Shown one piece after another: positions 21,256 to 37,507 of a stretch of DNA of 37,507 nucleotides. The DNA is from Deltaproteobacteria bacterium. Lineage in GTDB: Bacteria > Desulfobacterota > B13-G15 > RBG-16-54-18. Position 1 is the stretch's first letter. Each line of letters begins with the position of its first letter. The notes under the pieces are model-generated. The model ran no database searches. It was not told where the DNA came from and saw only the letters and a program-made list of their open reading frames with translations. The DNA is taken from positions 1 through 37,507 of the forward strand of contig DAOVGN010000057.1 of the NCBI GenBank assembly GCA_030672385.1, in the 5' to 3' direction. The translations under genes were made by a program, and so were the position numbers.

Positions 21256-22445
21256 CCCCTCACCATCTTGGTATCCTGGGCATATCTCCTCAGTCCATCC
21301 AAGATAGCGGTAGCCAATTCATCGAGATACCTTTCGTCTCTAAGCCTTCTTTCCTCCATCGGGTTGCTGATGAAGGAGACCTCGATCAGTATAGAGGGCA
21401 TCTTTGCCCCGAACAGTACCACAAAGGGGGCCTGCTTCACACCGAGGTCTTTCACATCGCTATACCTCTCTTTAAGCCTACTTACCAAGGCCCCTTGTAC
21501 ATATTCGGCGAGTTGAGATGATTCATTCACTTTGGCATTAAGCATGAGGTCGTAGAGGATGAGCTGGAGGTCACTTATCTTCTCGGGTGATACCCCACTC
21601 TCTCTTGCTGCTAGGCGTAAGGCGTCCTCATCGGTGGTAAAGTTGAGAAAATAGGTCTCTATTCCATGAGCCTCTCTCTTCTTGGTGGCGTTGGCATGAA
21701 TGGAGACAAAGAGATCACCTCCCTTTGTATTGGCGATGGCTGTCCTTTCCTCCAAAGGTATGAAGCTATCATCCTGGCGAGTCATGACAACTTCCCACCT
21801 CAACTCTTTCCTGATCTTATCCCTCAACTTTTGGGCGATCTTTAAAACCACGTCTTTTTCCCTAAGACCTTTGGGCCCTATTGCCCCTGGATCTCCGGCC
21901 CCATGGCCAGGATCTATCACCACCCTGAAGGACCGGGGCCTCTGGAGAGGGGGGGGCTTGATGACCTTCGCCTTCACAGGCTTGCCCAAGACGTCTATCA
22001 CGATCCTAAAAGGATCGGTCAGGGAAAAGATCTTATAATCGATGAGACTCTCCAGATCCAGCACTACACGCACGGTATCGGGATTATATTGTCCGGCCCG
22101 AGCCCTCTTAAGGAGTCCATCCTCAATGGGGATCGGTTGAGTGAGCTGAGGGCTGAGTCTGGCAACCTTAAGGTCTATATAGAGTCGGTGGGGTTTTTTT
22201 AGCGTGGGGTCTTCTCTTAAGAGATGGTCCTTGTAGGTAACCTCTTGGTCGAGATCGATCACTATGCGGGTGTAAGCGGGATCGGACCAGTGCCTAATGC
22301 CCGTGACCAAGCTCTTTTTCTGAGATGTACCAGGAGGAATTATTTGAAATGCCAGAACCTGATCTTCACCAAAAAGGAGGGGATGTGAGGCTGAAACCCA
22401 CGACAAAAGACAGACAAACACTAATCCTGCAACCTTTTTTAGCAT
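21252..22445 (-). CDS. N-acetylmuramoyl-L-alanine amidase with AMIN domain (AmiC-like)
   Basis: Signal peptide, AMIN region, IDPGHG..DPGA, EKDV.L, FVSIHANA, LIEVSFISN. Confidence 0.95.
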   Translation of the reverse strand: MLKKVAGLVFVCLLSWVSASHPLLFGEDQVLAFQIIPPGTSQKKSLVTGIRHWSDPAYTRIVIDLDQEVTYKDHLLREDPTLKKPHRLYIDLKVARLSPQLTQPIPIEDGLLKRARAGQYNPDTVRVVLDLESLIDYKIFSLTDPFRIVIDVLGKPVKAKVIKPPPLQRPRSFRVVIDPGHGAGDPGAIGPKGLREKDVVLKIAQKLRDKIRKELRWEVVMTRQDDSFIPLEERTAIANTKGGDLFVSIHANATKKREAHGIETYFLNFTTDEDALRLAARESGVSPEKISDLQLILYDLMLNAKVNESSQLAEYVQGALVSRLKERYSDVKDLGVKQAPFVVLFGAKMPSILIEVSFISNPMEERRLRDERYLDELATAILDGLRRYAQDTKMVRG

Positions 22446-22522: not shown

Positions 22523-25189
22523 CTAAGAAGTCGTGATCCTCCTCGGCTGTACGATCCGGGGGGCTATAAAGATCAAGAGTTCCTTTTTGTCCCTATCCTT
22601 CTTCTTCTTTTTAAATAGCCAGCCCAATAACGGGATTTTGTAAAAGACGGGGACCCCATGCACACTACCGGACTTTTCATAGGTATAGATCCCACCGATC
22701 ACCACTACCTCTCCATCCTTGACCAGGACCTCTGTCTGGGCCTCTTTTTTGTCGATGGCTGGTACACCCAGTACCGTATTGCTCCAGTCAGGGGTATCTT
22801 TAGAGATCTTGATCTCCATCCTTATGTGCCCATCAGCAGTCACATGGGGGGTGACAGTCAGTTTCAGGTTGGCCTCTATGAACTCGGTGGAGATCGTACC
22901 CTCCTCTGTATACTTCGGGTAGGGTATACGCAGACCCTGTTCTATATATGCCTCAGTATGATCCAGGGTAGTAACCCTGGGACTTGAGATCACCTGTCCG
23001 TCCCCTGTCTCCTCCAGGGCTGAAATCTTTACCTGCAGATATTTGGTATTTTTTATATTCGCAATTATCATTTCTATGGCACCACCATGGCCGCTACTTG
23101 CCCCAGCAGGTAGGTCCACCACAAAGTCTCCACTGCTGGCCCCCTTAGTCTCTACATTGACATTTTCTTTGGGAAAATCCTCCGTGATTTTCCCACCCCA
23201 CGATATTCCCAGCTCCCTGGCGAAGTTAGTGCTGGCCTCTATGACCTTCGCCTGGATCAAGATCTGAGGGGTCTGGGCATCCAGTTTTTGCACCAGGTCC
23301 TTCGCCTTTTCCACATTGGTTAGAATGTCCTTTACGATAAGGGTATTGGTGCGCTCATCCACGGTTACGGTCCCCCTGCCGCTCAGGAGGTCTTTGACCT
23401 TAGGGGCGAGTTCCGTAGCCGTGCTGTAGTTCACCGGTATCAATTCGGTGACAAGGGGTGCCAGCTCTTCGCTGGCCTTGGTAGCCGCTGCCCTCGCCAG
23501 TTTATCTTTTTGCAACCTCTCCAGGGGGGCTATTCGGATGACGTTGCCTATCATCTCCATCCCCAAGTTGTTCGCCTGCAGGATGACATCTAGTGCCTGA
23601 TCCCAAGGGACATCTACCAATCTGATGGTGACCTTTCCCTTTACATCCTCGGTGGTGATGATATTCAGGTTGCTCACCTCTGCAAAGAGCCGCAGTATGT
23701 TATCGATGTCTGCGTCCTTGAAATCCAGGGTGACCTTCTTCCCTGTATAGACCTTTTGTGCCACCCTCTCAGGGAGGGTGGCAACCGGCACAACCTTCGG
23801 CACCGGCGCTGGAGGGGCAACCTCCTCCTTTTTCACCTCTGCAGGTTTCTCCACCACTTTTACCTCAGGGGGCTTTTTGACGGTGACCACCTCAACAGGT
23901 TTGGGTTTTTCTACCCTAAATTCTTCAGGCCTCGCAAAATCGAGATAGATCCTGCTGTCCTCCTGCTGGACATCAAAGGCCACCATCTTGCACAACTTCA
24001 CAAGGATTCGGGCACTCTTTTGGTCATCAAGCACAATATTACTGGGGGTGATCATCACCACAGGGCTGGCGAATTCATGGGTATCTAAAGGTCTGGTAAG
24101 CTTTGAGGGGACAATCATTCCCTTTACCTCTACCAGCACCGTATCCTCTGGTCCCTTCACCACATCATAGGGGGCCTTCGCCGAGGTGCAGATAATAATC
24201 CTCGATTTATCCTTCAGCTGCTTAAAGTCTATCCCGGTGATCTCTCCCGTCACAGGTACTGCAGGAGGAACCTTTTCCTCCTTGACAACCTCCTTTTGGG
24301 GCGCAGGAACAGGAGGAACAGGGACCTCTGCCTTCACCTCCTTCCCCAACACGACCCTCAACTCATCACCGACGCGATCGATCCTGTGGGCAGGGAGTGC
24401 CTTGGTTGGAATATCGAGGACCACTCTGACCTTCTTGGGGTGATCTCCTAAACGCACCTTTTTCAGAAAAGGGGAATCGACCAAGACCGCCCTCGAAGGA
24501 AATTTTCTCTTTATCTTCCACAGATCAATTACCAAACGTGTCGGCTTCTGCAGAGCAAAGGTATTGTAATCTCCCACCCTTCCGTCTGTCTTCAAACTCA
24601 AGATCACTTTATCTTTTTGGGACTTATCTGCATAGACGCCGACTAAACTCTGAGCAGGAGCCATTTCTTTTGGGACAACTTTCTCCTTTACTGGTGGAGG
24701 GGCCTCTTCAATGATCTCTATTTCCTTCTTTTTCTCCTCTTCCCTGGCAATAAGAGGGCCCCGTTTACCAACGTCTATGTAGAGGAGGGGGCCTTCCTTT
24801 TGGACTTGATATCTGACTAGTTTATTCAGACATATACAGATCTTGGCATTCCCTTCCTGTTGAGTGGCAACGATCTCCTTTATTACATCATCACCAACCG
24901 TTATGGGGGTGGAGACTCCTTCAGCCAACTCCGTTTGTGGGATATCGATCACCAGCTTCAACGGTTGGGGGATGAGCTTAAAGAACGTATACACCAGAGG
25001 GGATTCCCCCTCGATGATCACTCTCTTGCCCTCATCCCTGTCTACTACCTCTATATTCTTAATGAAATTTTGGGGGACGGCTTTCGGCAAGGGTTGTACC
25101 TTTTCACGGGGGGCACAACCCATTACCAATAAGATAATGGAGATCACCACTACTCCACAGCACCCCTTCTTCTTATTAAGGCTCTTCAT
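22523..25189 (-). CDS. pilQ: type IV pilus secretin PilQ (lipoprotein signal, AMIN repeats)
   Basis: Lipobox LVMGC; AMIN repeats; TLDFKDADI, VPWDQAL, VDERTN, ELGISWGG, KIPLLGWLFK, ELLIFIAPRI. Confidence 0.97.
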   Translation of the reverse strand: MKSLNKKKGCCGVVVISIILLVMGCAPREKVQPLPKAVPQNFIKNIEVVDRDEGKRVIIEGESPLVYTFFKLIPQPLKLVIDIPQTELAEGVSTPITVGDDVIKEIVATQQEGNAKICICLNKLVRYQVQKEGPLLYIDVGKRGPLIAREEEKKKEIEIIEEAPPPVKEKVVPKEMAPAQSLVGVYADKSQKDKVILSLKTDGRVGDYNTFALQKPTRLVIDLWKIKRKFPSRAVLVDSPFLKKVRLGDHPKKVRVVLDIPTKALPAHRIDRVGDELRVVLGKEVKAEVPVPPVPAPQKEVVKEEKVPPAVPVTGEITGIDFKQLKDKSRIIICTSAKAPYDVVKGPEDTVLVEVKGMIVPSKLTRPLDTHEFASPVVMITPSNIVLDDQKSARILVKLCKMVAFDVQQEDSRIYLDFARPEEFRVEKPKPVEVVTVKKPPEVKVVEKPAEVKKEEVAPPAPVPKVVPVATLPERVAQKVYTGKKVTLDFKDADIDNILRLFAEVSNLNIITTEDVKGKVTIRLVDVPWDQALDVILQANNLGMEMIGNVIRIAPLERLQKDKLARAAATKASEELAPLVTELIPVNYSTATELAPKVKDLLSGRGTVTVDERTNTLIVKDILTNVEKAKDLVQKLDAQTPQILIQAKVIEASTNFARELGISWGGKITEDFPKENVNVETKGASSGDFVVDLPAGASSGHGGAIEMIIANIKNTKYLQVKISALEETGDGQVISSPRVTTLDHTEAYIEQGLRIPYPKYTEEGTISTEFIEANLKLTVTPHVTADGHIRMEIKISKDTPDWSNTVLGVPAIDKKEAQTEVLVKDGEVVVIGGIYTYEKSGSVHGVPVFYKIPLLGWLFKKKKKDRDKKELLIFIAPRIVQPRRITTS

Positions 25190-25785
25190 AGTTTTTCCCC
25201 CTCCCCAGGGACATGTAATCTCAAAAGGATCTCCTTTGACCTGATATTGCCCAAATAATCTTTATACCGCTCCTCTATGATTACACTGTCTTTGAGGATT
25301 TTTTTCACTTTGCCGAAGTTTCTCCCGATATATGTCCCCTTCTCGACGATATAACCTTTCCCCTCAGAATCCTCCACCATCGCCCTTCCCTCTGTTTTTC
25401 CCACCAGGATGGCCACCAGTTTCAGTTGACTGAGGTCATATTTCTGCAGGGGGGTGAGGGATATCTGTTCCCCGGAGGGTTTTACAGGGGTTTGCATGGC
25501 GATGAATGGCTGAAAGGGGTCCCTCTTGCCTGTGGGATCGTAGACATAATGGCGCTTTTCCTCCTTTTGCTGCAAGGGCGATGTAGAGGTCGCCGGTGCC
25601 GGTGTGGGGACACTTGGTGAGGGTTTTCGGGATTTGGGTGCCAGCATAACCTTTTCCCGACCCTCTTCTTTTTTGCTATCGGTGCGGGGTGACCTGTCGC
25701 ATCCCCCCAGGATAAGGGCGATACCGATAATCAAGATGAGGGCGCAAGGCCCTTTTGACCTTCTTTCTCTAACCATTTTCACCAC
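25186..25785 (-). CDS. pilP: type IV pilus lipoprotein PilP
   Basis: Lipobox LGGC; YDPTGKRDPF, PLQKYDLSQLKLVAI; position in pilMNOPQ. Confidence 0.93.
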   Translation of the reverse strand: MVKMVRERRSKGPCALILIIGIALILGGCDRSPRTDSKKEEGREKVMLAPKSRKPSPSVPTPAPATSTSPLQQKEEKRHYVYDPTGKRDPFQPFIAMQTPVKPSGEQISLTPLQKYDLSQLKLVAILVGKTEGRAMVEDSEGKGYIVEKGTYIGRNFGKVKKILKDSVIIEERYKDYLGNIRSKEILLRLHVPGEGEKL

Positions 25786-25787
25786 GC

Positions 25788-26381
25788 CTATTTCTTCTTG
25801 GCTCCCTCAACCTTTTCCAAATATCTATAAGTTGTGGCAACGCATGAGGTACTCAACAGGATCTCCCCCTTTTTCTTTGCGGGGGCCTTTACGAGAGAGA
25901 ACTGCGCGATGTTTACTATGCGCGAAAGGGTGCCCACATGATAAAAGAACATCCCTATCTTGTGATACGACCCCACAAACTTTAATTCCACGGGGACCTT
26001 AGCATAAAATTGCCCAGGCTGCTCCCCCTGAGGTTTAAACAAAAGTAATTCCAAGCCAGCCTCTTTGCCCAGATTGGATATGTTCTTCAACAGGTTGGGA
26101 ATCTCCCTTTTGTCCGGCAACTTGCTTAAGGCCTCCCTTAGATCCTCGCTCATCCTCCCCAACTCCTCCTTAAACTTGTCAAAGTCCTTGGCGATGTTGC
26201 TCTTTATATTTTTTTCTCTAATAAGGTCATTCAACTTCGATTCCTTGGCTTCAATCCGCCTTGTCTGCGGAAGGTGAAAGGCGTACACGTAGGTCCCTAA
26301 GATGGCCGCTGAGATCAGCAAGAGGATACCTACTTTTTGCGGTGTAGGTAACTTGATGATGGTGTCCAGAGAGACTGCCAT
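25788..26381 (-). CDS. pilO: type IV pilus assembly protein PilO
   Basis: TM; LPDKREIPNLL, FYAKVPV, GSYH, RIVNI, TYRY. Confidence 0.95.
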   Translation of the reverse strand: MAVSLDTIIKLPTPQKVGILLLISAAILGTYVYAFHLPQTRRIEAKESKLNDLIREKNIKSNIAKDFDKFKEELGRMSEDLREALSKLPDKREIPNLLKNISNLGKEAGLELLLFKPQGEQPGQFYAKVPVELKFVGSYHKIGMFFYHVGTLSRIVNIAQFSLVKAPAKKKGEILLSTSCVATTYRYLEKVEGAKKK

Positions 26382-26391
26382 GGGATCCTCC

Positions 26392-26931
26392 TTAAAGGGA
26401 AGTTGAACAGAGCAAACTAAACTTTTTTAGCCTGAGACCTCCCCTCACAAATTGTTCTGTCACCTCCAGTTCTACCCCGCCGAAATATCTGGAGCGCTCT
26501 AATAGGGTCATGAAATTAGCGATAGTCTCATTGTCCAACGCTACACCTACAATCTTCAGCTTCTTTCCATTCTTATCCAAGCTCTCGATCCACATCTTCT
26601 CCGGTATACTCTGGCTCAGTTCGTCTAGTACACATACCGCACTTAACCTTCCCGCTTCCAAATTATTGATGATAGTTAACTTTTTCTGAAGCTTGGCCTT
26701 TTTCTCCTTTAACTTGTCTATCTCACCCACCACCTCATTTATCTTAGTTATCTCTTCCTTGACCAAGTGCAATTGGGCATCAACACGTTTCTCGCGCTGC
26801 TTTGTAGACCAGTTAAGATAAGCGACAGCCACAAAGGTCAAAAAGAGGACGAGGATTAAGATGGAGGTCTGAAATCGAAGGGTTTCCTTTTTCCTCGCCT
26901 CCCGTACAGGTAGTAAGTTTATCTCTATCAT
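26392..26931 (-). CDS. pilN: type IV pilus assembly protein PilN
   Basis: INLLP motif, TM, coiled coil. Confidence 0.95.
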   Translation of the reverse strand: MIEINLLPVREARKKETLRFQTSILILVLFLTFVAVAYLNWSTKQREKRVDAQLHLVKEEITKINEVVGEIDKLKEKKAKLQKKLTIINNLEAGRLSAVCVLDELSQSIPEKMWIESLDKNGKKLKIVGVALDNETIANFMTLLERSRYFGGVELEVTEQFVRGGLRLKKFSLLCSTSL

Positions 26932-26934
26932 TTC

Positions 26935-27993
26935 TTATATCTTCCTTAAGGCCAACCCTACACCTACGGCCATTAAGGGGCCGATATCCTTTAAATACTC
27001 AGGATCAAAGGCTCGCAGGTTGACCGCTATGTTTGCAAATGGATTGATGATCTCTACTGGCAAATTAAGCCTCTCTCCCACAATCTGTTTTAATCGGGGG
27101 ACCTTGGAGCAGCCACCACCAAGGTAGATGCGAGCTATCCTCTCTTCGGGGAAAGTTGCGGTAAAGAAATCCAAAGACTTGGCTATCTCCAAGGCAATGG
27201 TGGAAGAGGTCTTGTCAAGCACCCTATCGATGGTATGCGGCGTTCCTTTATCCGATACACCACCTAATTTCAAGCCTTCAGCCTCCTCAAAATTTACGCT
27301 TAGCTCCTTTTGGATCTCTTCTGTGTAAAGATTCCCCCCGGTGGAGATATCCCTTGTGAAGAGGGACCTCCCCCCCTTAACGATATTGAGGTTCATTATG
27401 CTGGCTCCAACGTCACATAAGACCACCAAATCTCCTATCTCCAAGGGATAATTTAGTTCGTACATATTCTCCAGGGCAAAAGAATCTATGTCAATAATCG
27501 TGGGACTCAACCCTGCTTCCTTGACGACGGCGACATAATCTTCGATAAAATCTTTCTTGGCGGCAACGAGAAGGACTTCCATATGTTCCCCCATCTCCTT
27601 TTCCGGGGTTGATAATATTTGAAAGTCAATGTTCACATCATTTATGTCAAAGGGGATATACCGCTCTGCTTCCACTAGGACATTCTCCTCTAGCTCCGAT
27701 TCCGTCATCTTGGTGAGGGTGATCTTCTTCACGATTACCGAATGGCCGGACACAGAGACGGCCACCTCCCGCTTTTGAATCTTATAATTAGAGGCCAATT
27801 CCCTTATCGCCTCCACCACTGTTGTGGAATCCATCAAGCTCCCATCCACGATGGTCTCTGGAGGCAGGGGGTTTAGGCCTATGTTGTTGAGTTGGTAGCC
27901 TTTCCCTGTATCCTTGATGTTCACAAATTTGATGGCGCTGGTACCTATGTCCAGCCCTAGTACCTGTTTCCCTTTACTTGTAAAGAGTCCCAT
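26935..27993 (-). CDS. pilM: type IV pilus actin-like protein PilM
   Basis: GLDIGTSAIK, YIPF, IDIDSFALEN, DVGA, AVGVGLALR. Confidence 0.97.
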   Translation of the reverse strand: MGLFTSKGKQVLGLDIGTSAIKFVNIKDTGKGYQLNNIGLNPLPPETIVDGSLMDSTTVVEAIRELASNYKIQKREVAVSVSGHSVIVKKITLTKMTESELEENVLVEAERYIPFDINDVNIDFQILSTPEKEMGEHMEVLLVAAKKDFIEDYVAVVKEAGLSPTIIDIDSFALENMYELNYPLEIGDLVVLCDVGASIMNLNIVKGGRSLFTRDISTGGNLYTEEIQKELSVNFEEAEGLKLGGVSDKGTPHTIDRVLDKTSSTIALEIAKSLDFFTATFPEERIARIYLGGGCSKVPRLKQIVGERLNLPVEIINPFANIAVNLRAFDPEYLKDIGPLMAVGVGLALRKI

Positions 27994-28084: not shown

Positions 28085-29473
28085 TCAAGGATTTAATCTA
28101 TAGCGGTTCAACTTCTCCCTCAAGGTTGAACGGGAGATCCCTAAAACCCTGGCCGTCTCCGATTTGTTCCCCCTTTTCTCTTGCAGCACCTTTAGGATGT
28201 ATCTGCGTTCCACTGCGGCCAGAGGGCTGAACCCATCCACATTATCCACCCATTTCTCTCCTAGGGAGGAGGCCCTTTCCACTTTATTCCTCCTCAATTC
28301 AAGGGGGAGGTCTTCAGGGGCAATTAGATCTCCTCTAGCCAAGATCATAGCCCTTTCAATGACATTTTTCAGTTCTCGCACATTTCCCGGCCAAGAATAG
28401 GCCAGTAGGAGATCGAGGGCCTCATCGGTAACACTTCTTATCTCCTTTCCTAATTCCCTTCCTATCTTCTTGTTGAAATACTGTGTGAAAGTGGGTATAT
28501 CCTCCTTCCTATCGCGTAGAGGAGGTAAATCTATCACCATTACCTTGATGCGGTAATAAAGATCTTTGCGAAATTCCCCTGTCTCCACCAATTGAGCCAG
28601 CTCCTTATTGGTAGAGGTAATTACCCTTACATCCATTTTAATGTCTCTTTCCCCCCCTACTCTCCTGAGAAGATAAGTTTCTAAAAATCTCAGTAATTTC
28701 GGCTGAAGGGAGGGTTTCATCTCTGAGATCTCATCCAAAAAGACCGTCCCCCCTTGAGCTAATTCTATGAGGCCCGGCCTGTTCTCCTTGGCATCGGTAA
28801 AGGCACCTTTCTCATAACCGAAGAGCTCGGATTCCAGCAAAGCCTCAGGGATAGCGCTACAATTTATCTTAATGATGGGCTTTTGTCTTCGTCGGCTTTG
28901 ATAGTGGATGGCGTTAGCCACCAATTCCTTTCCTGTACCACTTTCACCCTGAATTAAGACAGGAGTTCGTGGGGTCTGACTTATCAAGGAGATAAGTTCC
29001 CTCACCACGTCCATCTGAGGGCTTACCCCATAGATCTCTTCCTCCTCTTCTTTATCCCTGTGTTTATAACGCAATCTGAGGAGCTCCCCCCTTAGTTCCT
29101 TGGTCTCCAAGGCCTTCTTGACCGCCAACCGCAATTCGTCTATCTCAAATGGCTTATTTATATAATCATAGGCTCCGGCCTTCATGGCTGCAACCACCGT
29201 TTGCACATCGGCATAGGCAGTCATCATGATAACAAGGGGATCGCTATCTATTTCCCTAATCTCCTTCAGTATGTCAAAACCGTCCATATCCGGGAGCTTT
29301 ATATCCAACAGGATGAGATCGAAGACCATCTTCCGGAGGCAATAAAGGGCATCTTCACCCTTCTGGGCAGAGGCCACTTCACAAGACATCTTTTCCAAGA
29401 CCTCTGATAGGGTGCGACACATCACCTCGTCATCATCAACAATGAGTATATTAGGCTTGACTTCCATCATCAA
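28085..29473 (-). CDS. sigma54-dependent response regulator (NtrC/AtoC family)
   Basis: REC domain; GESGTGKE, ESELFG, GAFTDA, LDEI, WPGNVRELKN, Fis HTH. Confidence 0.95.
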   Translation of the reverse strand: MMMEVKPNILIVDDDEVMCRTLSEVLEKMSCEVASAQKGEDALYCLRKMVFDLILLDIKLPDMDGFDILKEIREIDSDPLVIMMTAYADVQTVVAAMKAGAYDYINKPFEIDELRLAVKKALETKELRGELLRLRYKHRDKEEEEEIYGVSPQMDVVRELISLISQTPRTPVLIQGESGTGKELVANAIHYQSRRRQKPIIKINCSAIPEALLESELFGYEKGAFTDAKENRPGLIELAQGGTVFLDEISEMKPSLQPKLLRFLETYLLRRVGGERDIKMDVRVITSTNKELAQLVETGEFRKDLYYRIKVMVIDLPPLRDRKEDIPTFTQYFNKKIGRELGKEIRSVTDEALDLLLAYSWPGNVRELKNVIERAMILARGDLIAPEDLPLELRRNKVERASSLGEKWVDNVDGFSPLAAVERRYILKVLQEKRGNKSETARVLGISRSTLREKLNRYRLNP

Positions 29474-30527
29474 TCTTTACCGGGAGGTCTAGAATGAACG
29501 TAGAACCATTCCCCTGGGAACTCTCCACTTCAATCTTCCCTCCATGTCCCTCTACTATCTTATGGGTTATGGAGAGGCCTAATCCTAATCCCTTACTCTT
29601 AGTGGTAAAGAAGGGATCAAAGATTTTGGGGAGATGTTCGGGCTTTATCCCCACACCAGTATCCTTAACCTTGACCTGAATCCATCCTCTTGGTAGATTC
29701 CTTCTTTTTATCTCCACTGTCAATTTCCCTCCAGCTGACATAGACTGGAGGGCGTTGAGGAAAAGATTCATAAATACCTGCTGCATCTGATTAAAATCCA
29801 GGGGGATGGGCGGCAAACCATTGCCATATATCTCTTTGATTTTAATCCCTCTATTTTCTGCCTCCTTCGCCAAAAGACCCTTTACCTCTTTAATAAGATC
29901 CTGGATCTGACAAGGAGCAAGGTTAAGGTGTTTGGGCTTGGCAAAGGAAAAAAAGGTGCGCAACAGATCGTTGAGCCTGTCGATTTCTTTAATGATCCTA
30001 TCGAGATACTCCTTCCTAGGGTCATCGTTACCCAACTCTTCATTTAAGGCTTGGGCGGTGGTCTTGATTCCAGCCAGAGGGTTTCTTATCTCGTGGGCCA
30101 AGGTGGAGGAGAACTCCCCCAAATATGCCAATCGATCCATCTTCACTATCTCTCCATGCATCTTATAGACATGGGTCATATCCTGCAAACTTGCCACCTT
30201 TCCCCTCTCTCTCCCCAGATAGTCGTGATATGGAAAGATCGATAGCTTTAAGGGGGTGTTTTCCTTTCCCTTTTGGAAAAATATTGTTCCATCTCCCCCT
30301 TTCCCTCCCAGACTTTCATTTCCTTGTGACAAAAGGCTTAGAAGACGTTTGCCCAAGAGGAGATCTCCTTTTTTCCCCAGGATCTCCTCTGATGCCTTAT
30401 TGGCAAAGATGATTTTTTCCCCCCTGTCCAACAGAATCACCCCTGTCTCAATTCCATCTAAGATCCCTTTTACAAAGGGGCCAGGTCTTTCTACACTCCT
30501 GGATTTCTCGTTACTTTTAACAACCAA
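29451..30527 (-). CDS. cytoplasmic PAS-domain histidine kinase
   Basis: N-terminal PAS-like region, H-box AHEIRNPL, N-box, DTGVGI, FDPFFTTK, GLGLGL; no TM; TTG start after GGAGGG. Confidence 0.92.
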   Translation of the reverse strand: MVVKSNEKSRSVERPGPFVKGILDGIETGVILLDRGEKIIFANKASEEILGKKGDLLLGKRLLSLLSQGNESLGGKGGDGTIFFQKGKENTPLKLSIFPYHDYLGRERGKVASLQDMTHVYKMHGEIVKMDRLAYLGEFSSTLAHEIRNPLAGIKTTAQALNEELGNDDPRKEYLDRIIKEIDRLNDLLRTFFSFAKPKHLNLAPCQIQDLIKEVKGLLAKEAENRGIKIKEIYGNGLPPIPLDFNQMQQVFMNLFLNALQSMSAGGKLTVEIKRRNLPRGWIQVKVKDTGVGIKPEHLPKIFDPFFTTKSKGLGLGLSITHKIVEGHGGKIEVESSQGNGSTFILDLPVKIDDGSQA

Positions 30528-30545: not shown

Positions 30546-31823
30546 TTACAATGATATTTGCTCCACATCGAGAATCCATACCCCCCCCTTCCCTGATACC
30601 CCTTTCCCTAAAATGTAGGGTTTCCCCTCTATGGGGTGGTATTCGATCTCCTCTCGGGATATGGCTTGGTCTACGATAACTGCTGCCGTGCGGTCCTCTC
30701 TTCCCCTTACAATGAGTATAAGGGGTTTTTCTTCTGTCGATGGTCTAAGTTTGAACACCTGAAAGAGATTCAAAAGGGGTATTTCCATTTCCTTTAACTT
30801 AACTCTTCCGCTCTTGATGAAAAAATCAGCCACCCATTTTTTTACCAGGAAGCTCTTCAATATCTGGTTGTCGGGAAGACCAAAGACAACACCCGAGGCT
30901 CCGAAGAGTGAGACGGCCATCGTTGGTACCTTTGCGGGTTCCTGTATAGCGATATCTGATGGTGAATACGATCCCCTCTCTAACCTCCCATTTAAATCTG
31001 CTATCTCTTCTCCCCCCCCTTCCAGTTCCCCTCTAAATTCTTCCCCAGACCCAAATTGCCTCTGCAGCTCTGTCTTATAGGAGGTTATTGCCTGGTGGAT
31101 ATTCCCCAATCTCTTATTCTCCTCCTTGACCGCTTTTTCCAATTCCTCGATTCTGTCTATTAATCTCTTTATTCCTTCAAAAGATGTCTTTTTTTCCTCA
31201 GGAGGTTTCTGGGTTACTATCTCTTCCCCTCCCATCTCTCGTATCTCTACTTTCTTCTCCTTTGGAGCCTTTTCCTCTATTCCCAGTCTCTGAAACTCCG
31301 CCTTTAACTCCTTCACCAAGGCAACTTTATCGATCTCAAAAGAAAACCGCTCATCAGTCATCCCTTTAGCGACCTTCCAAGACTTTTGCAAGAACTTTAA
31401 GGCAGTGGGGTTAAGTTTGCTTTCATCTAAGAGGAGTTGATAAAGTACCTTTTGTATCAGAATTATAACAATCTCTAATTCATCAACCCCATGGGGAAGC
31501 CTTCTTAGATCTTGGAGGAGGGTTAAGGCCCTGTTTATGTGTTTGGAGCTGATATCCCATTCCAAGGTCAACAATTGTGCCTCTACTTCCTCCAGCTTTT
31601 CCTGAAGCGCACGGGAGGCCAACCCCCTCTCTTGTGTCGGAGGTGCTGTTGGGGAAGGATAATCTCTGTTCGCTGCCCTCACCTCTTTGTAAGGGGCATG
31701 AACTCCTTTAGGCTGGGTGACCGGATTTGCCTGACCTTCTTTTTCTACAAATAGAGTATCTACAGCGGCCTCTATATCTCTTTCTAGATCCGATAAGTCC
31801 CAACTATTATCTTTATCATTCAT
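30546..31823 (-). CDS. uncharacterised coiled-coil protein with a C-terminal CheW-like domain
   Basis: Acidic N-terminal helix, helical/coiled-coil middle, C-terminal VFGLP..QI, IPLLNL, AVIVDQ, ILDVEQI pattern typical of the CheW fold; start overlaps the mglA stop. Confidence 0.65.
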   Translation of the reverse strand: MNDKDNSWDLSDLERDIEAAVDTLFVEKEGQANPVTQPKGVHAPYKEVRAANRDYPSPTAPPTQERGLASRALQEKLEEVEAQLLTLEWDISSKHINRALTLLQDLRRLPHGVDELEIVIILIQKVLYQLLLDESKLNPTALKFLQKSWKVAKGMTDERFSFEIDKVALVKELKAEFQRLGIEEKAPKEKKVEIREMGGEEIVTQKPPEEKKTSFEGIKRLIDRIEELEKAVKEENKRLGNIHQAITSYKTELQRQFGSGEEFRGELEGGGEEIADLNGRLERGSYSPSDIAIQEPAKVPTMAVSLFGASGVVFGLPDNQILKSFLVKKWVADFFIKSGRVKLKEMEIPLLNLFQVFKLRPSTEEKPLILIVRGREDRTAAVIVDQAISREEIEYHPIEGKPYILGKGVSGKGGVWILDVEQISL

Positions 31824-32443
31824 TAAAATTGCCTATCTGCTAGTGTTTTTTTGCTCACATCCTTAACCACCAATTTGCTTATCTCCCTCAGGGTTTCAAA
31901 AACCCCTTGCCCCTTGAGGGCACTGGCAGGGAAAGAAGGTACCTTTAGATAAGAGTTGAGATCCCTCTCCATTTCTGCGATGGTTAGCACAGGTATATTA
32001 CTCCCCTCCAAGTCCCTTTTATTGTATTGCATGATCAAGGGTAGATTGGTGACGTCTAATCCCCTCTCTTTGAGATTATAGGCCAAATTTTCCAAGCTCT
32101 CAATGTTCTTTTCCCTCTGCACCCGCATAGAATCAGCCACAAATACCATTCCATCAACCCCTCTTAAGACCAGTTTTCTCGTAGCGTCGTAATGCACCTG
32201 TCCTGGTACAGTGTAAAGTTGCACTCTGATCGCAAAATCCCTGATTCTACCTAAATTAAGGGACAAAAAATCAAAAAATAGTGTTCTATCACCCTTTGTG
32301 TCTATAGAGACCAATTGCCCCCTTATATCATTATTAGTGCTGTCATAGACAAACCTCAAATTAGTGGTCTTTCCCCCGAGACCAGGACCATAATATACGA
32401 CTTTGCAGTGGATCTCTCCTGAACTAAAATTGATGAAGGCCAT
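31823..32443 (-). CDS. mglA: small Ras-like GTPase MglA
   Basis: MAFINFSSGEIHCKVVYYGPGLGGKTTNL, DRTLFFDF, LYTVPGQV, FVADS, QYNKRD, GVFETL. Confidence 0.95.
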   Translation of the reverse strand: MAFINFSSGEIHCKVVYYGPGLGGKTTNLRFVYDSTNNDIRGQLVSIDTKGDRTLFFDFLSLNLGRIRDFAIRVQLYTVPGQVHYDATRKLVLRGVDGMVFVADSMRVQREKNIESLENLAYNLKERGLDVTNLPLIMQYNKRDLEGSNIPVLTIAEMERDLNSYLKVPSFPASALKGQGVFETLREISKLVVKDVSKKTLADRQF

Positions 32444-32456
32444 TATTTATATTGAA

Positions 32457-32870
32457 CTACTCCCCTCTATTCCTCTCTAAGATCTCCCTGAAGATATTAC
32501 GCAATTCATGTATCACTTTTTCTGTTCTCAATCTTACCAGCCCTAAGGTGGTCCGGTCATCAAATAATGTCACCATGATAAATTCTGTGCCGATCTTAGA
32601 AAAATGTACATTCTCATTTTTCCCTTTGTGGAAGAGAAGGGCAAATTCGTCTTCTCCCAGAAGTCTCGCTATCTCTGAAGTGGCACCAAAATTGGCTGCG
32701 GTTAGGGCGGAAAGGGCGATGACATCCAACGTTGAGGGGTCACCGCTGGAGGCGATCAGCTGTCCCGACCTATCGATTAATAGGGCACAATGGGCCCCAG
32801 AACTGCTTAACATCTTGTCAAGGCACCTCTCAATCTTGACAAGATCTTGATCAGAAAGGATGAGATTCAT
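32457..32870 (-). CDS. mglB: roadblock/LC7 protein MglB (GAP of MglA)
   Basis: LLIDRSGQLI, LSALTAANFGAT..IARLLGEDEF..LFH.G, FDDRTTLGLVRL; directly upstream of mglA. Confidence 0.93.
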   Translation of the reverse strand: MNLILSDQDLVKIERCLDKMLSSSGAHCALLIDRSGQLIASSGDPSTLDVIALSALTAANFGATSEIARLLGEDEFALLFHKGKNENVHFSKIGTEFIMVTLFDDRTTLGLVRLRTEKVIHELRNIFREILERNRGE

Positions 32871-32993: not shown

Positions 32994-34016
32994 TCAAGGG
33001 CCGAAAATTTCCGGCATGCTCGATTTCAAGCCAAGATCTTCTATCCTCCCGCTATACTTTTCAATGGTAGATCGCAGTGTAAAGTTTATCCTTGTGTGCA
33101 ATTCATCCTTGGTGATCTTCAAGGGCGCCTTTTCCAAAGTCAGGTCTATACAATCCTTTATCCCTCGGAGAAACTCCTCCAAGGGCACCTTCCCCCAAAA
33201 TTTTATCTCTCCATTCTCATACTCAAATTCGGCTACAAATGGATCGAGGAACGGATAGTCCTCGGATTTTTCCACCTGAGCTCTTTTGAAACCCTCGCGG
33301 AAGGATCCTTTTTGTGTGGTCAGGCCATCCACCAAGCCCTCAATAATATCCATAACCTCTTGTATCACCTCTATGGCCCCTTGCAGGTCTCTGGTTTGAG
33401 CTATCTCCGTCCGTTCAGCCCCCCTCTCCAACAGGCCAGCGCGATATACATTAAAGCTTGCACCAATCTTTTGGGCGTCATCTATTACCTTGGACAATAT
33501 CTCCTTGCCATACATCGTTTTATTTCCTGCACCAGACATGGCAACCTCTAAAATCTCTCCTTCTTGTAAAAAAACAACCCCCTTGCCTTTGTCGCCAGTT
33601 AAAACTATATCGATGTATCCTGAATGTTTTTCCTTGCTCAGCTTTTCTACTAATTTATCCAAGCTGGTGAACTCCGTGGACAAATTTTTGTATATTGCTT
33701 CTTCCGTAGATGTGCTGGCCAAAATGGTCACCATCTCTGGGGCCAATCTATGGACATTGATCCTTCCATCCTTTTGCTTGGACATGAGGATGATATTCTC
33801 TACTGCATCTTCCCCTACCCTTCTCGTACCTTGCGTCTCTTCGATAGCATTCACTATCTCTCCAGCCTCCAAAAACAGGACCCCTTCATGATCCCAAGAG
33901 GAGAGTTGCACGTAACCGTCGAAGTCATCCTCTTTTAACGATTGGAGAAAACTGTTGAGATCGACAAAAGAGGTCCTCAGATTGTCATAAACCGCTTCTC
34001 CTTTTGGTAAGATCAT
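32994..34016 (-). CDS. protein with two tandem PATAN/DUF4388-DUF2226-like repeats
   Basis: Internal repeat: EAVYDNLRTSFVDLNSFLQSLKEDDFDGYVQL..GVLFLEAGEI vs EAIYKNLSTEFTSLDKLVEKLSKEKHSGYIDI..GVVFLQEGEI; followed by a helical C-terminal domain. Confidence 0.7.
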   Translation of the reverse strand: MILPKGEAVYDNLRTSFVDLNSFLQSLKEDDFDGYVQLSSWDHEGVLFLEAGEIVNAIEETQGTRRVGEDAVENIILMSKQKDGRINVHRLAPEMVTILASTSTEEAIYKNLSTEFTSLDKLVEKLSKEKHSGYIDIVLTGDKGKGVVFLQEGEILEVAMSGAGNKTMYGKEILSKVIDDAQKIGASFNVYRAGLLERGAERTEIAQTRDLQGAIEVIQEVMDIIEGLVDGLTTQKGSFREGFKRAQVEKSEDYPFLDPFVAEFEYENGEIKFWGKVPLEEFLRGIKDCIDLTLEKAPLKITKDELHTRINFTLRSTIEKYSGRIEDLGLKSSMPEIFGP

Positions 34017-34047
34017 ATGTAAAACCTCCTCTTTCTTTATTAGGACA

Positions 34048-35172
34048 TTAAACTTGGAACTTGGTTGGTTTCTGCTCTAAGATATTTCTGGCCCTAGAAT
34101 AAAACTCATCAGCGGTGGTATTATTCAACAGTGTGACCATCAGAAAGAGGTAATTGTACCTCATGATGATAGATTGATTATTTTTGTGCCCGAGATTTAT
34201 CCTCAATAGTTGATGGTTCCCCACGGATTTTTCCAACCTGGCAGCCATGGTGGACAATAGCGAGGGGATTAAGGCGTCCTTTTCGTTAAAATCTTGATCA
34301 TTGATGGTCAATACCCTTCCTTTTTCGTTGACCCACATCCCCTTTTCATAGCCGTTAATACTGGCCAACATCTTCAACAATCGTTCCAGCAATTCTTTCG
34401 TTTCGATCTTTTTGTCGAGATCCTCAAATGCCTTCTCTACCTCCTGCAGTAAGACCGAGCTATCTCTGTCTTCTGTGACAGTGCTTTCATCCCTTCTTCT
34501 CATACCCTCCAACAGGAGGTGTTCCCAACGGTCCGTTATAGTCTCTTTGGGGATTGGAACTCCCATCTGAGAGATGAACCTCCCATCTTTCCAGCTCAGC
34601 ATGGTGTACAGGGCTTCTTCTCCCTCCAGGTCCCCTATTTTCGCATGAACGATCTCGCCGTTCCTGAAATAGATCATACCCTCTTCATCACCCCTGGAGA
34701 CGGCGATTGACATGCTAAACCTGCCCAAACATCCCATCTGGATGACATCAACGAGTTGCAGGTCGAGGACTTGACCTACAAAACCACCCCTCTCCTCCTC
34801 AAGGGCCTTAAGGATAATGTTCCTGATATCAGATATCTCAAAAGGTTTCTCGATGTAATGGTATGAACCTCTCTTGGTAGCCTCTTCTTGGACTTCCGGT
34901 GATCCGTAGGCCGTCATGATGATTACCTTGGTCCACGGATACTCTTCCCTTATCTTTGACAGTAAATCGAGTCCATTGATGTCTGGCATCCTTATGTCTG
35001 TTACCACCACATCGATACGAGATTTTTGTAGGGTCTGAAGGGCCTCTGTTCCTGTATTGGTGCTGATGAGCTCATATTTATCTCTATCTTTGGCCAAGGT
35101 TTTGGTCATACTCCAAGTCAGGGTCTCTTCATCGTCCACTACGAGGACCTTCCTTGTCTCTTTTTCTGCCAT
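34048..35172 (-). CDS. response regulator: REC + DUF4388/PATAN + C-terminal roadblock-like domain
   Basis: VLVVDDE, TDIRMP, MTAYG, KPF; then GFVGQV..LQLVDVIQM..GMIYFRNGEIVHA..GEEALY.MLSW..G.F..LLLEGMRRRDE; ATG at 35172. Confidence 0.85.
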   Translation of the reverse strand: MAEKETRKVLVVDDEETLTWSMTKTLAKDRDKYELISTNTGTEALQTLQKSRIDVVVTDIRMPDINGLDLLSKIREEYPWTKVIIMTAYGSPEVQEEATKRGSYHYIEKPFEISDIRNIILKALEEERGGFVGQVLDLQLVDVIQMGCLGRFSMSIAVSRGDEEGMIYFRNGEIVHAKIGDLEGEEALYTMLSWKDGRFISQMGVPIPKETITDRWEHLLLEGMRRRDESTVTEDRDSSVLLQEVEKAFEDLDKKIETKELLERLLKMLASINGYEKGMWVNEKGRVLTINDQDFNEKDALIPSLLSTMAARLEKSVGNHQLLRINLGHKNNQSIIMRYNYLFLMVTLLNNTTADEFYSRARNILEQKPTKFQV

Positions 35173-35318
35173 TTCTTGTACCTCAGGAATCAAGGTTTTG
35201 CTTTTTCCTTCATTGAAAGGAAAAGAGTGTGTGACAGCAGCCAACGACTAATGAGTTTGCCAAATATTAAATCTCCCATTTTCCTTGTGCTAACCTTTGG
35301 ATAACTCGCCTTAAAAGG

Positions 35319-36188
35319 TCACCATCCCTTGACCTTTTTCTGATACTGCTCCAGGTAATTGGCCGGCACTGGAACAAAACGCCTTATATTGTTGGTCCTC
35401 AAGACTGGGTGGCCAACGGGAATATTCAACAGGGCTTCCTGAACCATCTTTTTTGCCTTTGCTGGCAATTTTTTATTTGCGCTGAAGACCCAGTTGGGGG
35501 TTCCCTCGGTATGGGCGATGATCTGTATATCCTTCGTTTCTCCTGGGGATAGTAAGCCCTTGCTCTCTATCCTCCCCAAGGTCTCTCCAGAAATAAAGCC
35601 TGCGTCAGCCTTTTTTTGTATCACATCGAAGACGACGCTCTCCGCTTTGTTCTCCTTCGCTTCAACAATAGTGAAGTCGACATATATAACCAGTCCTCTT
35701 TCTGCCAAGAAGATTCTTTGGGCGATGAATCCCCCCGCACTGTGCAGTGAGACGACGCTTATTTTCTTTCCCTTCAGGTCCTCTATTTTTTTTATTCCGC
35801 TGTCCTTCCTGGTGATAATTATCCCTCTGGACTCAACCCCCCCCTCTTTCCCTTTCTCGGTCAACGTAAGGGGGGAACTGGCCTCCCATACCTCAATAAA
35901 GACATAGGGATTTTGATATGAGAAGTCCACCTCCCCTCTTTTTACCATTTCAATATGTTGCTCAAAGGAACGTGGGATGACGAGCTCGAACCGAACACCC
36001 AAGGTATCCTCTAAATAAGTCATCAAGGGGTTTAGCCTCTGCCACATCTCAATGCGTAGATATTCAGGGACGACGGCAATCTTATAAGTTTCTTCTGCCA
36101 GCAGGGGCTGTTGAAAAACGACATGGGAAAATATCGAAAATATGAAAATTACAAGAACAATAAGGAGCCTTTTCCTCTCCTTAGTCAC
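35319..36188 (-). CDS. PhnD-like (phosphate/phosphonate-type) periplasmic substrate-binding protein
   Basis: Signal peptide; PL.TYL..TLG, G.VDF...NP, RGIIITRKDSGI..IEDLKGK, S.GG, V..DV....ADAGF. Confidence 0.85.
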   Translation of the reverse strand: MTKERKRLLIVLVIFIFSIFSHVVFQQPLLAEETYKIAVVPEYLRIEMWQRLNPLMTYLEDTLGVRFELVIPRSFEQHIEMVKRGEVDFSYQNPYVFIEVWEASSPLTLTEKGKEGGVESRGIIITRKDSGIKKIEDLKGKKISVVSLHSAGGFIAQRIFLAERGLVIYVDFTIVEAKENKAESVVFDVIQKKADAGFISGETLGRIESKGLLSPGETKDIQIIAHTEGTPNWVFSANKKLPAKAKKMVQEALLNIPVGHPVLRTNNIRRFVPVPANYLEQYQKKVKGW

Positions 36189-36193
36189 TGAAC

Positions 36194-37063
36194 TTATCTC
36201 CCTCTCAACCTCTCGATGGCGGCTTTGAGGCTTATCTGCATCCTCCGTAATGCCTCAGCCAACACCCTAATTTCGTCCTTCGTCTTCACCTCTATACTCG
36301 CCCCCAGATCCCCAACGCTTATCCGATCGGCTACCTTGGCCAAATGTAGAAGGGGCTTCGTAATCCGCCGTGAGAAAGAGATCGCCGCGATTAACGCCAC
36401 AAGCAGCGCAACGACGCCCACGATACCGATAGCTACCATTTGTCTTTGAGCTCCCTTCTTAAATGTTTCACTTAACCTCACGACAGGAGAACGAAATTCA
36501 TCTATATAAGTTGTGGCCGCAATGCCGTATCCGCTTCCCTCTACAGGGACACATACCATAAACTTGTCCCTTATCTTGCCATCAGGATCCTCCCATTTAT
36601 AATAACCCTTCGTAAAAGTACCCTCCAGATGGGGCTCTAGTATCCGCCAAAACTCAGGAAGCTTGGTGGCCAATTTGTGCAAATCCAGGTCCTCCACCTT
36701 GGGATTGATGTGAAAGCGGTTTATCCCTGTCTTCAGCTCATGAAGAGCCGTATAACCTGTCTGCCCTACCGGCTGTACTGCCAATTCCCTAAACTCGGGG
36801 TCCTCCCGCAGATCCTCCAAGGTGTAGTCGAGATGGGCCTCTAGATAAGCTGACACTTCCTCGGCCGCATCCTTGCCCACATCTTCTATGATCTGCTCTC
36901 CTACCTTTCCTAATACCTCATCTCCCTTTTGGGTGATCACCTCACTCATATCTTTTATTTCAGACAAAGAGACATACCCGACTATCCCCAAGGGGATAAC
37001 GGTGGCAATAATGGCCAAAATGGTCAATTTACCTAAGATCCCGAATCCGCCCATCTCTCTCAT
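36194..37063 (-). CDS. two-TM Cache-like/HAMP membrane receptor lacking an output domain
   Basis: TM1, extracytoplasmic region (QPVGQTGYTAL..RFHINP..GYYKWEDPDG..RDKFM), TM2, HAMP (ITKPLLHLAKVADRISVGDL..DEI..LAEALRRM), then stop after LKAAIERLRGR. Confidence 0.85.
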   Translation of the reverse strand: MREMGGFGILGKLTILAIIATVIPLGIVGYVSLSEIKDMSEVITQKGDEVLGKVGEQIIEDVGKDAAEEVSAYLEAHLDYTLEDLREDPEFRELAVQPVGQTGYTALHELKTGINRFHINPKVEDLDLHKLATKLPEFWRILEPHLEGTFTKGYYKWEDPDGKIRDKFMVCVPVEGSGYGIAATTYIDEFRSPVVRLSETFKKGAQRQMVAIGIVGVVALLVALIAAISFSRRITKPLLHLAKVADRISVGDLGASIEVKTKDEIRVLAEALRRMQISLKAAIERLRGR

Positions 37064-37507
37064 TCCCCCTTTTCTCTGATCTTTTAAGGTCTCCTCCTGA
37101 GCCTCTCGATGGCGGCTTTGAGGCTTGTCTGCATCCTCCGTACGGCCTCAGCCAACACTCCAATCTCATCCTTCGTCTTCACCTCTATACTTGCCCCCAG
37201 GTCCCCAACGCTTATCCGATCGGCCACCTTGGCTAGATGCAGAAGGGGCTTCGTAATCCGCCGTGAGAAAAATAAGCTGAGTCCCACAGCGAAAGGAACT
37301 GTGAAGATCAAGGTGATAAAAAATATCTTTACGGCCTTAATTTTAACAGAGTCAATATATCTGTAAATCCTGTCCCGGGGCAGGAGAAACTCATCTATAT
37401 AAGTTGTGGCCGCAATGCCGTATCCGCTTCCCTCTACAGGGACACATACCATAAACTTGTCCCTTATCTTGCCATCAGGATCCTCCCATTTATAATAACC
37501 CTTCGTA
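36498..37507. repeat. 117-bp exact direct repeat (36498-36614 = 37391-37507), part of an 893-bp-period tandem gene duplication
   Basis: Base-by-base identity from tcatctatataag to cttcgta; the HAMP-coding parts (about 36210-36378 and 37103-37271) are near-identical at the same 893-bp offset. Confidence 0.92.
37084..37507 (-). CDS. paralogous Cache-like/HAMP receptor (5'-truncated by the window edge)
   Basis: Frame is open to the window end (TKGYYKWEDPDGKIRDKFMVCVP...), with TM2 and HAMP, ending LKAAIERLRRRP. Confidence 0.85.
   Translation of the reverse strand, partial: TKGYYKWEDPDGKIRDKFMVCVPVEGSGYGIAATTYIDEFLLPRDRIYRYIDSVKIKAVKIFFITLIFTVPFAVGLSLFFSRRITKPLLHLAKVADRISVGDLGASIEVKTKDEIGVLAEAVRRMQTSLKAAIERLRRRP

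Follow-up and report, generated by a model that had tools for sequence, protein, structure and literature searches.

The GTPase MglA and its Roadblock partner MglB form, to our knowledge, the best-studied small-GTPase polarity system in bacteria, in which the role of MglB's C-terminal helix (Ct-helix) and the identity of the true exchange factor are currently disputed questions. In this work, we analyzed the mgl locus of a 37,507-nucleotide contig from a Deltaproteobacteria bacterium (assembly GCA_030672385.1, contig DAOVGN010000057.1; this whole stretch is referred to as the window), where mglB and mglA are followed on the minus strand by a gene encoding a protein of 425 amino acids (aa). On balance, the sequence evidence inclines us slightly towards the view that the MglA-gripping helix has its counterpart in this clade on that protein, a kinase-less CheA-like scaffold, and would dock from there in the same MglA pocket.

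In Myxococcus xanthus, one MglB protomer lodges a helix made of its residues 147-157 in an MglA pocket built from alpha5, beta2 and the beta2-beta3 loop; the contacts named are D150-D152, D154 and F157 on the MglB side and K181, K185, L64 and I67 on the MglA side (PMC6785124). The Ct-helix was described as an allosteric exchange helper (PMC6785124, PMC11016934), MglB lacking it binds MglA-GTP and not MglA-GDP, and the label of guanine nucleotide exchange factor (GEF) has been argued against for MglB (10.1101/2024.10.31.621274, also published as PMC13408092) and is contested for RomR/RomX (10.1101/2024.10.31.621274). A Glu-rich acidic helix at the C-terminus of RomR was proposed to use the MglA pocket in trans, and an MglB chimera carrying the RomR helix in place of the Ct-helix was wild-type-like (PMC6785124). 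The S3 Table of the same paper gives a C-terminal extension in 66 of 343 coupled MglBs, 56 of the 66 being acidic, and a basic alpha5 in 62 coupled MglAs, 48 of them paired with an acidic-tail MglB and 14 not; tail-less MglB is therefore common, and a basic alpha5 without an acidic-tail MglB stands as an unexplained minority. The neighbourhoods of Group 1 MglAs are said to “vary widely”, PATAN genes being the sole neighbours noted in the part available (PMC4316618). We found no description of the scaffold family, or of a conserved motif-bearing gene after mglA, in the MglA/MglB, CheW-like and Geobacter type IV pili literature; table S2 of PMC4316618, outside this search, may list such neighbours.

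The helix that opens the 425-aa protein resembles the M. xanthus Ct-helix (PDB 6IZW) in being acidic and amphipathic, with an [IV]-D-x-L-F core after E-I and acidic residues, and in its location at the end of a chain, next to a disordered linker; L64, I67 and the two basic alpha5 residues are likewise kept in the partner MglA. It differs in that it forms the N-terminus of another protein and its ligand is a predicted one, in its length (about 17 residues versus 11 ordered in the crystal), in having E/D-x-A for the D-D-D triplet, and in being repeated in some relatives. As with RomR of M. xanthus, an acidic helix comes from a protein other than MglB, although RomR is a receiver-domain protein and not CheA-like.

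The mglB-mglA pair and the gene coupled to it

The features compared are the following, with residue numbers referring to the respective protein and predicted local distance difference test scores (pLDDT) to the scaffold model described below:
32457-32870, minus strand: mglB, a Roadblock/LC7 protein of 137 aa without acidic C-terminal helix (Pfam, PDB)
31823-32443, minus strand: mglA, a Ras-like GTPase of 206 aa (PDB 5ymx_A)
32234..32266, minus strand: beta2-beta3 loop of MglA, residues 60-70, including L64 and I67 (alignment to 5ymx_A)
31862..31906, minus strand: helix alpha5 of MglA, residues 180-194, GVFETLREISKLVVK (alignment to 5ymx_A)
30546-31823, minus strand: gene of the 425-aa scaffold, its start overlapping the mglA stop (open reading frame (ORF) and sequence)
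31743..31799, minus strand: N-terminal acidic amphipathic helix motif of the scaffold, residues 9-27, DLSDLERDIEAAVDTLFVE, core [IV]-D-x-L-F (alignment; predicted helix 10-24)
31632..31742, minus strand: proline-rich linker, residues 28-64, variable in length and sequence (pLDDT <50 for 27-66)
31287..31631, minus strand: helical bundle, residues 65-179, with the conserved stretch ...LLTLEWDI..., similar to the P1 histidine phosphotransfer (HPt) domain of CheA (pLDDT 84-92)
31050..31181, minus strand: long single helix spanning residues 215-258 (modelled secondary structure)
30549..30932, minus strand: C-terminal CheW/CheA-P5-like beta domain, residues 298-425 (Pfam CheW; pLDDT about 95 for 301-425)

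The 137-aa protein has the marks of an MglB, namely a Roadblock/LC7 domain (Robl_LC7 of Pfam, 45.5 bits versus a cut-off of 23, E 6e-12), MglB similarity, its residues 3-133 aligning with residues 6-136 of M. xanthus MglB (PDB chain 6h5b_B, 160 residues; E 3e-28), and coupling to mglA, from which it lies 13 nucleotides (nt) upstream. Its 70.3 bits against the NCBIfam equivalog NF052242 fall below the cut-off of 200, which is no argument against this identity because that model was built on the Thermus type. The protein ends in ...IFREILERNRGE, just four residues beyond the Roadblock fold, so that it has no D/E-rich C-terminal extension of more than 15 residues, and about 24 C-terminal residues of M. 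xanthus MglB have no counterpart in it. The original prediction on this DNA had held that MglB lacks the acidic C-terminal helix, and the alignment, which stops at residue 136 of 160, bears this out; the M. xanthus tail that it had given is the one found at the end of the 6h5b_B chain, ...PFAEISDDDIDNLFS (the chain continuing to ...GSPFAEISDDDIDNLFS). The length of 137 aa recurs in 4/4 related loci holding mglB. In itself such an MglB is ordinary, since just 66 of the 343 coupled MglBs cited above carry an extension, and as a Roadblock protein without functional Ct-helix it is comparable to Thermus thermophilus MglB and to helix-less M. xanthus MglB; the difference is that the neighbouring gene here encodes a look-alike of the missing helix.

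MglA matches the M. xanthus chain 5ymx_A (E 2e-67, residues 1-198) and the T. thermophilus chain 3t12_A (E 2e-56) in a phmmer search of the PDB. Arg53, Thr78 of the TxxGQ motif and the catalytic Gln82, which we take to be hallmarks of MglA (the arginine being intrinsic), are all found in the translated and aligned protein of the window. R53 and Q82 are also named in the MglA papers cited here. A second MglA match was not found in the window's own genome (1.58 Mb, 93% complete). In the alignment to 5ymx_A, R186 corresponds to M. xanthus K181, K190 to K185, and L64 and I67 to L64 and I67, in agreement with the earlier statement that basic residues are kept on the last MglA helix.

The scaffold gene is welded to mglA: its ATG (31823-31821) and the mglA TAA (31825-31823) have one base in common, reading TAATG on the minus strand. 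The protein opens with ...DLERDIEAAVDTLFVEK (start of the translation, MNDKDNSWDLSDLERDIEAAVDTLFVEKEG). We found 74 homologues, 39 of which were aligned (alignment A1); among these 39 the N-terminus, MNxKDGGWDLSDLEKEIDSAVDTLLV, is almost invariant and the linker behind it varies freely, with a second motif copy within the linker in three of them. The helix is amphipathic and strongly acidic, with a heptad-like hydrophobic pattern, and in the model its terminal position ahead of a disordered linker is the anatomy of a short linear motif. Anchored on the core, the consensus of 11 MglB tails from the survey below is F-A-E-I-T-D-D-D-I-D-N-L-F-S, and that of 48 N-termini encoded downstream of mglA is L-E-K-E-I-[ED]-x-A-[IV]-D-x-L-F-V. 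The scaffold N-terminus is thus an acidic helix with an [IV]DxLF core at a flexible terminus, and the MglB-tail look-alike noticed earlier at the start of the gene coupled to mglA shares the core of the true tail and is near-invariant among the homologues.

The AlphaFold2 model of the scaffold, built from 39 homologues, has a mean pLDDT of 74, and the motif helix reaches about 69 in this single-chain model. The sole Pfam match of the protein is CheW (PF01584) at the C-terminus (27.4 bits versus a cut-off of 23.5). The modelled beta domain superposes on CheA P5 (2ch4_A, Z 17.4, root-mean-square deviation (rmsd) 1.9 over 121 residues) and on CheW (2qdl_B, Z 14.6), and the bundle on CheA P1 (1i5n_C, Z 13.3, rmsd 3.1 over 121 residues, a borderline value for helical bundles). 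The helix of residues 215-258, flanked by disordered stretches on both sides in the model, is possibly a coiled coil or a dimerisation element. Unlike the proteins of CheA/CheW arrays, the scaffold lacks the P4 kinase (no HATPase_c or H-kinase_dim match in the 425-aa protein, Pfam, E<=0.01) and a conserved phospho-acceptor His in the bundle (none among the invariant or near-invariant columns of alignment A1 or of the broader alignment A3, in which W89 is the sole residue invariant across the family). Besides, the genome of the window gave 0 matches to the signalling domain of methyl-accepting chemotaxis proteins (MCPs; PF00015) and none to the CheW-like domain PF01584 beyond the 425-aa protein; at 93% completeness these absences are not proven. 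As there is no kinase, no conserved His, no MCP and no other CheW, the modelled protein has a CheA-derived layout, yet it can be classed neither as a CheA nor as a CheW that works in an array, and the partner of its CheW/P5-like domain is probably not a receptor. Its earlier designation as a CheW-like protein therefore fits the C-terminal domain, while the protein as a whole has a CheA-like P1/P5 layout without kinase.

A profile search of 1.84 billion representative proteins gave 145 clusters at E<=1e-3, with full-length representatives (at least 300 aa, starting with M) in 106 of them. The motif lies in the first 70 residues of 72/106 by the strict pattern [IVL]D.[LI]F and of 97/106 by a relaxed pattern; of the other 9, most either start with the conserved LLSLEWEI stretch itself, so that their starts look mis-called, or have the motif further in. 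The order of motif, LEWE bundle, long helix and C-terminal beta domain is kept in distant members of 430-660 aa (alignment A3). Some members carry motif arrays of up to eight copies, which in P0134 recur about every 77 residues; arrayed members are P0134, P0127, P0147, P0167, P0155, P0158 and P0163, with copies 50-90 residues apart and 7-8 of them in P0127 and P0134. The scaffold of locus L036 (78-2054, minus strand of its own contig) has three copies, directly after mglA and beside a 137-aa MglB. Among 10 diverse family members, the sole name given by the source databases was the generic “chemotaxis signal transduction protein”. In a metagenome protein of 523 aa, P0231, an MglA domain is joined in one chain with the motif and the LEWE-bundle scaffold; its scaffold part is 32% identical to that of locus L045 (E 4e-34), and this single sequence gives a hint, no more, in favor of a module. 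We also observed a natural MglB-MglA fusion, P0305 (MglB in residues 5-136, MglA in 168-360), and many other MglAs of 360-530 aa with long C-terminal extensions devoid of the motif.

Distribution of the MglB tail and the scaffold motif

MglA was searched in 401 genomes of the phylum and found in 228. The survey comprised 70 MglA loci, the best 30 (L006-L035, L006 being the window) and 40 picked by hand (L036-L075), roughly one from each family, with identities reaching down to about 52%; ORFs were called anew, and the flanks fetched for the more distant motif-bearing loci L032-L050 were 1.5-2.2 kb on each side. Five named loci from metagenome-assembled genomes, in all of which the whole operon is kept, partly overlap the survey genomes and were left out of its counts. 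A tailed MglB (tail of at least 15 aa) was present in 11/70 loci, all 11 tails ending in ...EITDDDIDNLFS or close variants (IDxLF-like), and a downstream motif accompanied none of these (0/11). A short MglB was present in 51/70 loci; the gene after mglA bore the canonical motif in 42 (a pattern match in 40, inspection by eye in L033 and L051), opened with a variant, [LM]D[DE]xF, in 4, and had no motif in 5 (L029, which is cut by the contig end, L061, L064, L073 and L075). In the remaining 8/70 no MglB was found in the fetched stretch, with the motif in 2 (L014, L025) and none in 6, five of the latter having a PATAN gene downstream in its place. The co-occurrence of tail-less MglB with an N-terminal [IV]DxLF motif, proposed earlier as a check across genomes, thus holds in 42/51 short-MglB loci versus 0/11 tailed ones. 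The scaffold gene lies at -3 to +50 nt from mglA in most loci. The conservation of the motif and its tie to mglA were upheld as well: among the 338 ORFs of at least 200 aa in all 75 fetched loci, strict matches in the first 70 residues numbered 42, every one in the gene after mglA (42/42), and the remaining 296 long ORFs gave none.

Two further groups were noted in the survey. Loci L049, L053, L054, L055 and L059 have a distinct MglA-like GTPase without MglB nearby, a PATAN (DUF4388) gene directly downstream and an alpha5 without the K190 equivalent; the PATAN proteins of L049 and L055, the two that were Pfam-scanned, also hold a cyclic-nucleotide-binding domain. In L052, L058, L068 and L071, divergent MglA-like genes are followed by genes for shorter proteins (231-439 aa) starting with a variant motif, R-L-D-[DE]-[LIF]-F, three of which match L-x-[LI]-E-W-E-[IL], and that of L058 ends in a HAMP domain.

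At the level of whole genomes, the broad profile A3 found a full-length scaffold adjoining mglA in 5/5 further genomes of the short-MglB type lying outside the profile, and in 0/5 genomes with tailed MglB (about 100% complete). A narrow profile (A1), tried as an absence test, had no match in five tailed-MglB genomes, nor in five known-positive genomes; its absence result is uninformative because A1 missed distant known members, and A3, which had a working positive control, was used.

The pocket columns of MglA were counted in an alignment of 61 MglAs (A2), in which the motif class has 41 members, the tail class 11, the group with neither feature 7 and the variant class 2. L occupies position 64 in 39/41 MglAs of the motif class and 10/11 of the tail class, I/V occupies position 67 throughout, and at position 186 the two classes have R/K in 40/41 and K in 11/11, respectively. 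Position 190 is K in 40/41 of the motif class, 11/11 of the tail class, 2/7 of those with neither feature and 0/2 of the variants. The pocket residues are therefore retained in the motif and tail classes and lost where neither feature is present. Two neighbouring positions separate the classes: 66 is K/R in 32/41 of the motif class versus E/D in 11/11 of the tail class, and 194 is K/R in 40/41 of the motif class, whereas the tail class has acidic or hydrophobic residues at positions 66/194; the extra basic residues would suit a longer acidic helix.

The weight of these counts depends on descent. In a maximum-likelihood tree of the 61 MglAs (quick search), the 11 systems with tailed MglB form one clade (SH-like approximate likelihood ratio test 100, branch 1.09), and most of the systems with neither feature fall in one nested clade of 7. 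The tailed class being one clade, the complementarity counts reduce to one or two events and not to many independent replicates.

Proposed docking of the scaffold helix and its alternatives

The data show how the genes are laid out, that the motif exists, is conserved and is distributed in complement to the tail, that the pocket residues are retained, and what the folds are. For the scaffold helix we infer a binding site on MglA, independence of the bound nucleotide, an effect on exchange and a link to the pilus, which can be put together as a three-part module. MglB would act in it as a bare Roadblock GTPase-activating protein (GAP) that lacks the C-terminal helix. An equivalent helix would be presented by a third protein, presumably translated in step with MglA, at the N-terminus of which it precedes a long flexible linker; the remainder of that protein is the predicted kinase-less CheA-like scaffold with its P1/HPt-like bundle, long helix and P5/CheW-like domain. 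The helix would most likely dock in the alpha5 / beta2-beta3 pocket, the site of the M. xanthus Ct-helix, and would tether MglA to the scaffold irrespective of the bound nucleotide, which might ease nucleotide exchange, while the tail-less MglB would bind MglA-GTP alone and leave after hydrolysis. Relatives with 3-8 motif copies could hold several MglA molecules together.

Several observations weigh against this docking. The complementarity of tail and motif can reflect one historical event, and kinship alone can give the pattern; the pocket residues, too, may owe their retention to shared descent or to a different partner. The likeness behind the predicted docking on MglA is short: the spacing from the upstream E-I to the core differs by one residue, the tail aspartate triplet (D150-D152, mutated in published work) is replaced in the motif, and the core Phe is often Leu in the closest relatives of the window, as VDTLLV. 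Besides, the five short-MglB loci without motif and the two motif loci without nearby MglB break the correlation, the P0231 fusion, a single metagenome sequence, could be an assembly or frameshift artefact, and the loci L036-L075 were picked by hand, every locus coming from one phylum. A complex prediction for MglA (alignment A2) with scaffold residues 1-32 (A1) gave scores of 0.28 and 0.17 versus a mark of 0.32; run without controls, it speaks neither for nor against. Kinship does not explain, however, the shared core of tail and motif, nor the position of the motif at a flexible terminus in a gene welded to mglA.

The original prediction had gone further, in that the scaffold would supply an exchange-factor helix in trans and the GAP and GEF roles would be split between MglB and the scaffold. 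All the evidence for docking in the MglA pocket applies equally to this proposal, and the Ct-helix of one MglB protomer is reported to stimulate exchange allosterically (PMC6785124, PMC11016934); however, optimal exchange also needs the N-terminal strand of MglB1 (PMC11016934), which a free helix elsewhere would be without, and the requirement of the helix for MglA-GDP binding has been taken as retention and not as GEF action (10.1101/2024.10.31.621274). We regard such a split as tentative and rather unlikely, clearly behind simple docking. Still broader is the thought that evolution has moved the [IV]DxLF helix between partners as a portable handle by which MglA is held at its allosteric pocket, and that this handle in one large clade left MglB (or was never there) and heads a scaffold that serves as polar recruiter and exchange helper replacing RomR/RomX, the members with 3-8 copies clustering MglA in a polar hub at the type IV pilus machine; this we hold as doubtful, and slightly more so than the split of roles.

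Peptides of FliM and CheZ bind CheY, and the motif helix might in the same way dock on a different partner, such as the MglB dimer, the upstream PATAN or receiver-PATAN protein or a pilus component, its likeness to the MglB tail being convergent. The anatomy of a short linear motif does not reveal its binding partner; the window and most of its closer relatives (L006-L031) have PATAN genes upstream of mglB; and MglB, found in 46/48 loci with canonical or variant motif, is about as good a companion of the motif as MglA. Two motif loci (L014, L025), however, are without nearby MglB, and PATAN/receiver-PATAN genes were mostly not found in the 1.5-2.2 kb flanks of the distant motif loci L032-L050; binding to a receiver domain is ranked below docking on MglA because these genes do not accompany the motif in the distant loci. 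Another partner would also leave unexplained why the motif is missing exactly where MglB is tailed and why K190 is kept just with tail or motif, and we consider it an unlikely explanation, about on a par with the portable handle. Most improbable to us is that the helix works inside the scaffold, as an autoinhibitory latch on the P1- or P5-like domain or in oligomerisation, with MglA just a co-expressed neighbour: the heptad-like hydrophobic pattern of the amphipathic helix and its pLDDT, which at about 69 is moderate in the model of the single chain, would be in keeping with it, but the helix is strongly acidic, arrays of 3-8 copies on 50-90-residue linkers fit a one-to-one latch poorly, and the complementarity with the MglB tail would go unexplained.

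Gene neighbourhood and implications

The minus strand of the window holds a tight gene row, running from the receiver-PATAN and PATAN genes through mglB, mglA and the 425-aa gene to a PAS kinase, a sigma54 regulator and pil genes. The genes around the mgl module are:
34048-35244, minus strand: receiver-PATAN (DUF4388) gene (Pfam), upstream of mglB
32994-34016, minus strand: PATAN (DUF4388) gene (Pfam), upstream of mglB; the PATAN pair spans 32994..35244
29451-30527, minus strand: PAS histidine kinase (Pfam)
28085-29473, minus strand: sigma54 response regulator (Pfam)
22523-27993, minus strand: pilM, pilN, pilO, pilP and pilQ, downstream of the mgl module
21252-22445, minus strand: AMIN-domain N-acetylmuramoyl-L-alanine amidase, after the pil genes

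The kinase and regulator pair, placed between the mgl module and the pil genes, looks like PilS/PilR. At the other end, two neighbouring ORFs of 289 and 122 aa with a HAMP domain in each (36194-37452, minus strand) sit upstream of a periplasmic protein of phosphonate-binding type (35319-36188); the two may be fragments of one and the same sensor. The adjoining pilMNOPQ genes suggest type IV pili as the structures that the module positions or regulates.

Altogether, these results point to the scaffold as a third, so far undescribed partner of the MglA polarity switch, and they define a conserved third gene of the module, represented by 145 clusters, of CheA-derived architecture and placed beside type IV pilus genes. 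The finding may account for those MglAs whose alpha5 is basic and which are not paired with an acidic-tail MglB (14/62 in the S3 Table of PMC6785124). The large set of natural systems with the helix on a different protein would offer a clean separation of GAP action from helix action and, if the docking proposed here is true, the distal pocket of MglA would be a general docking site and not a peculiarity of Myxococcus.

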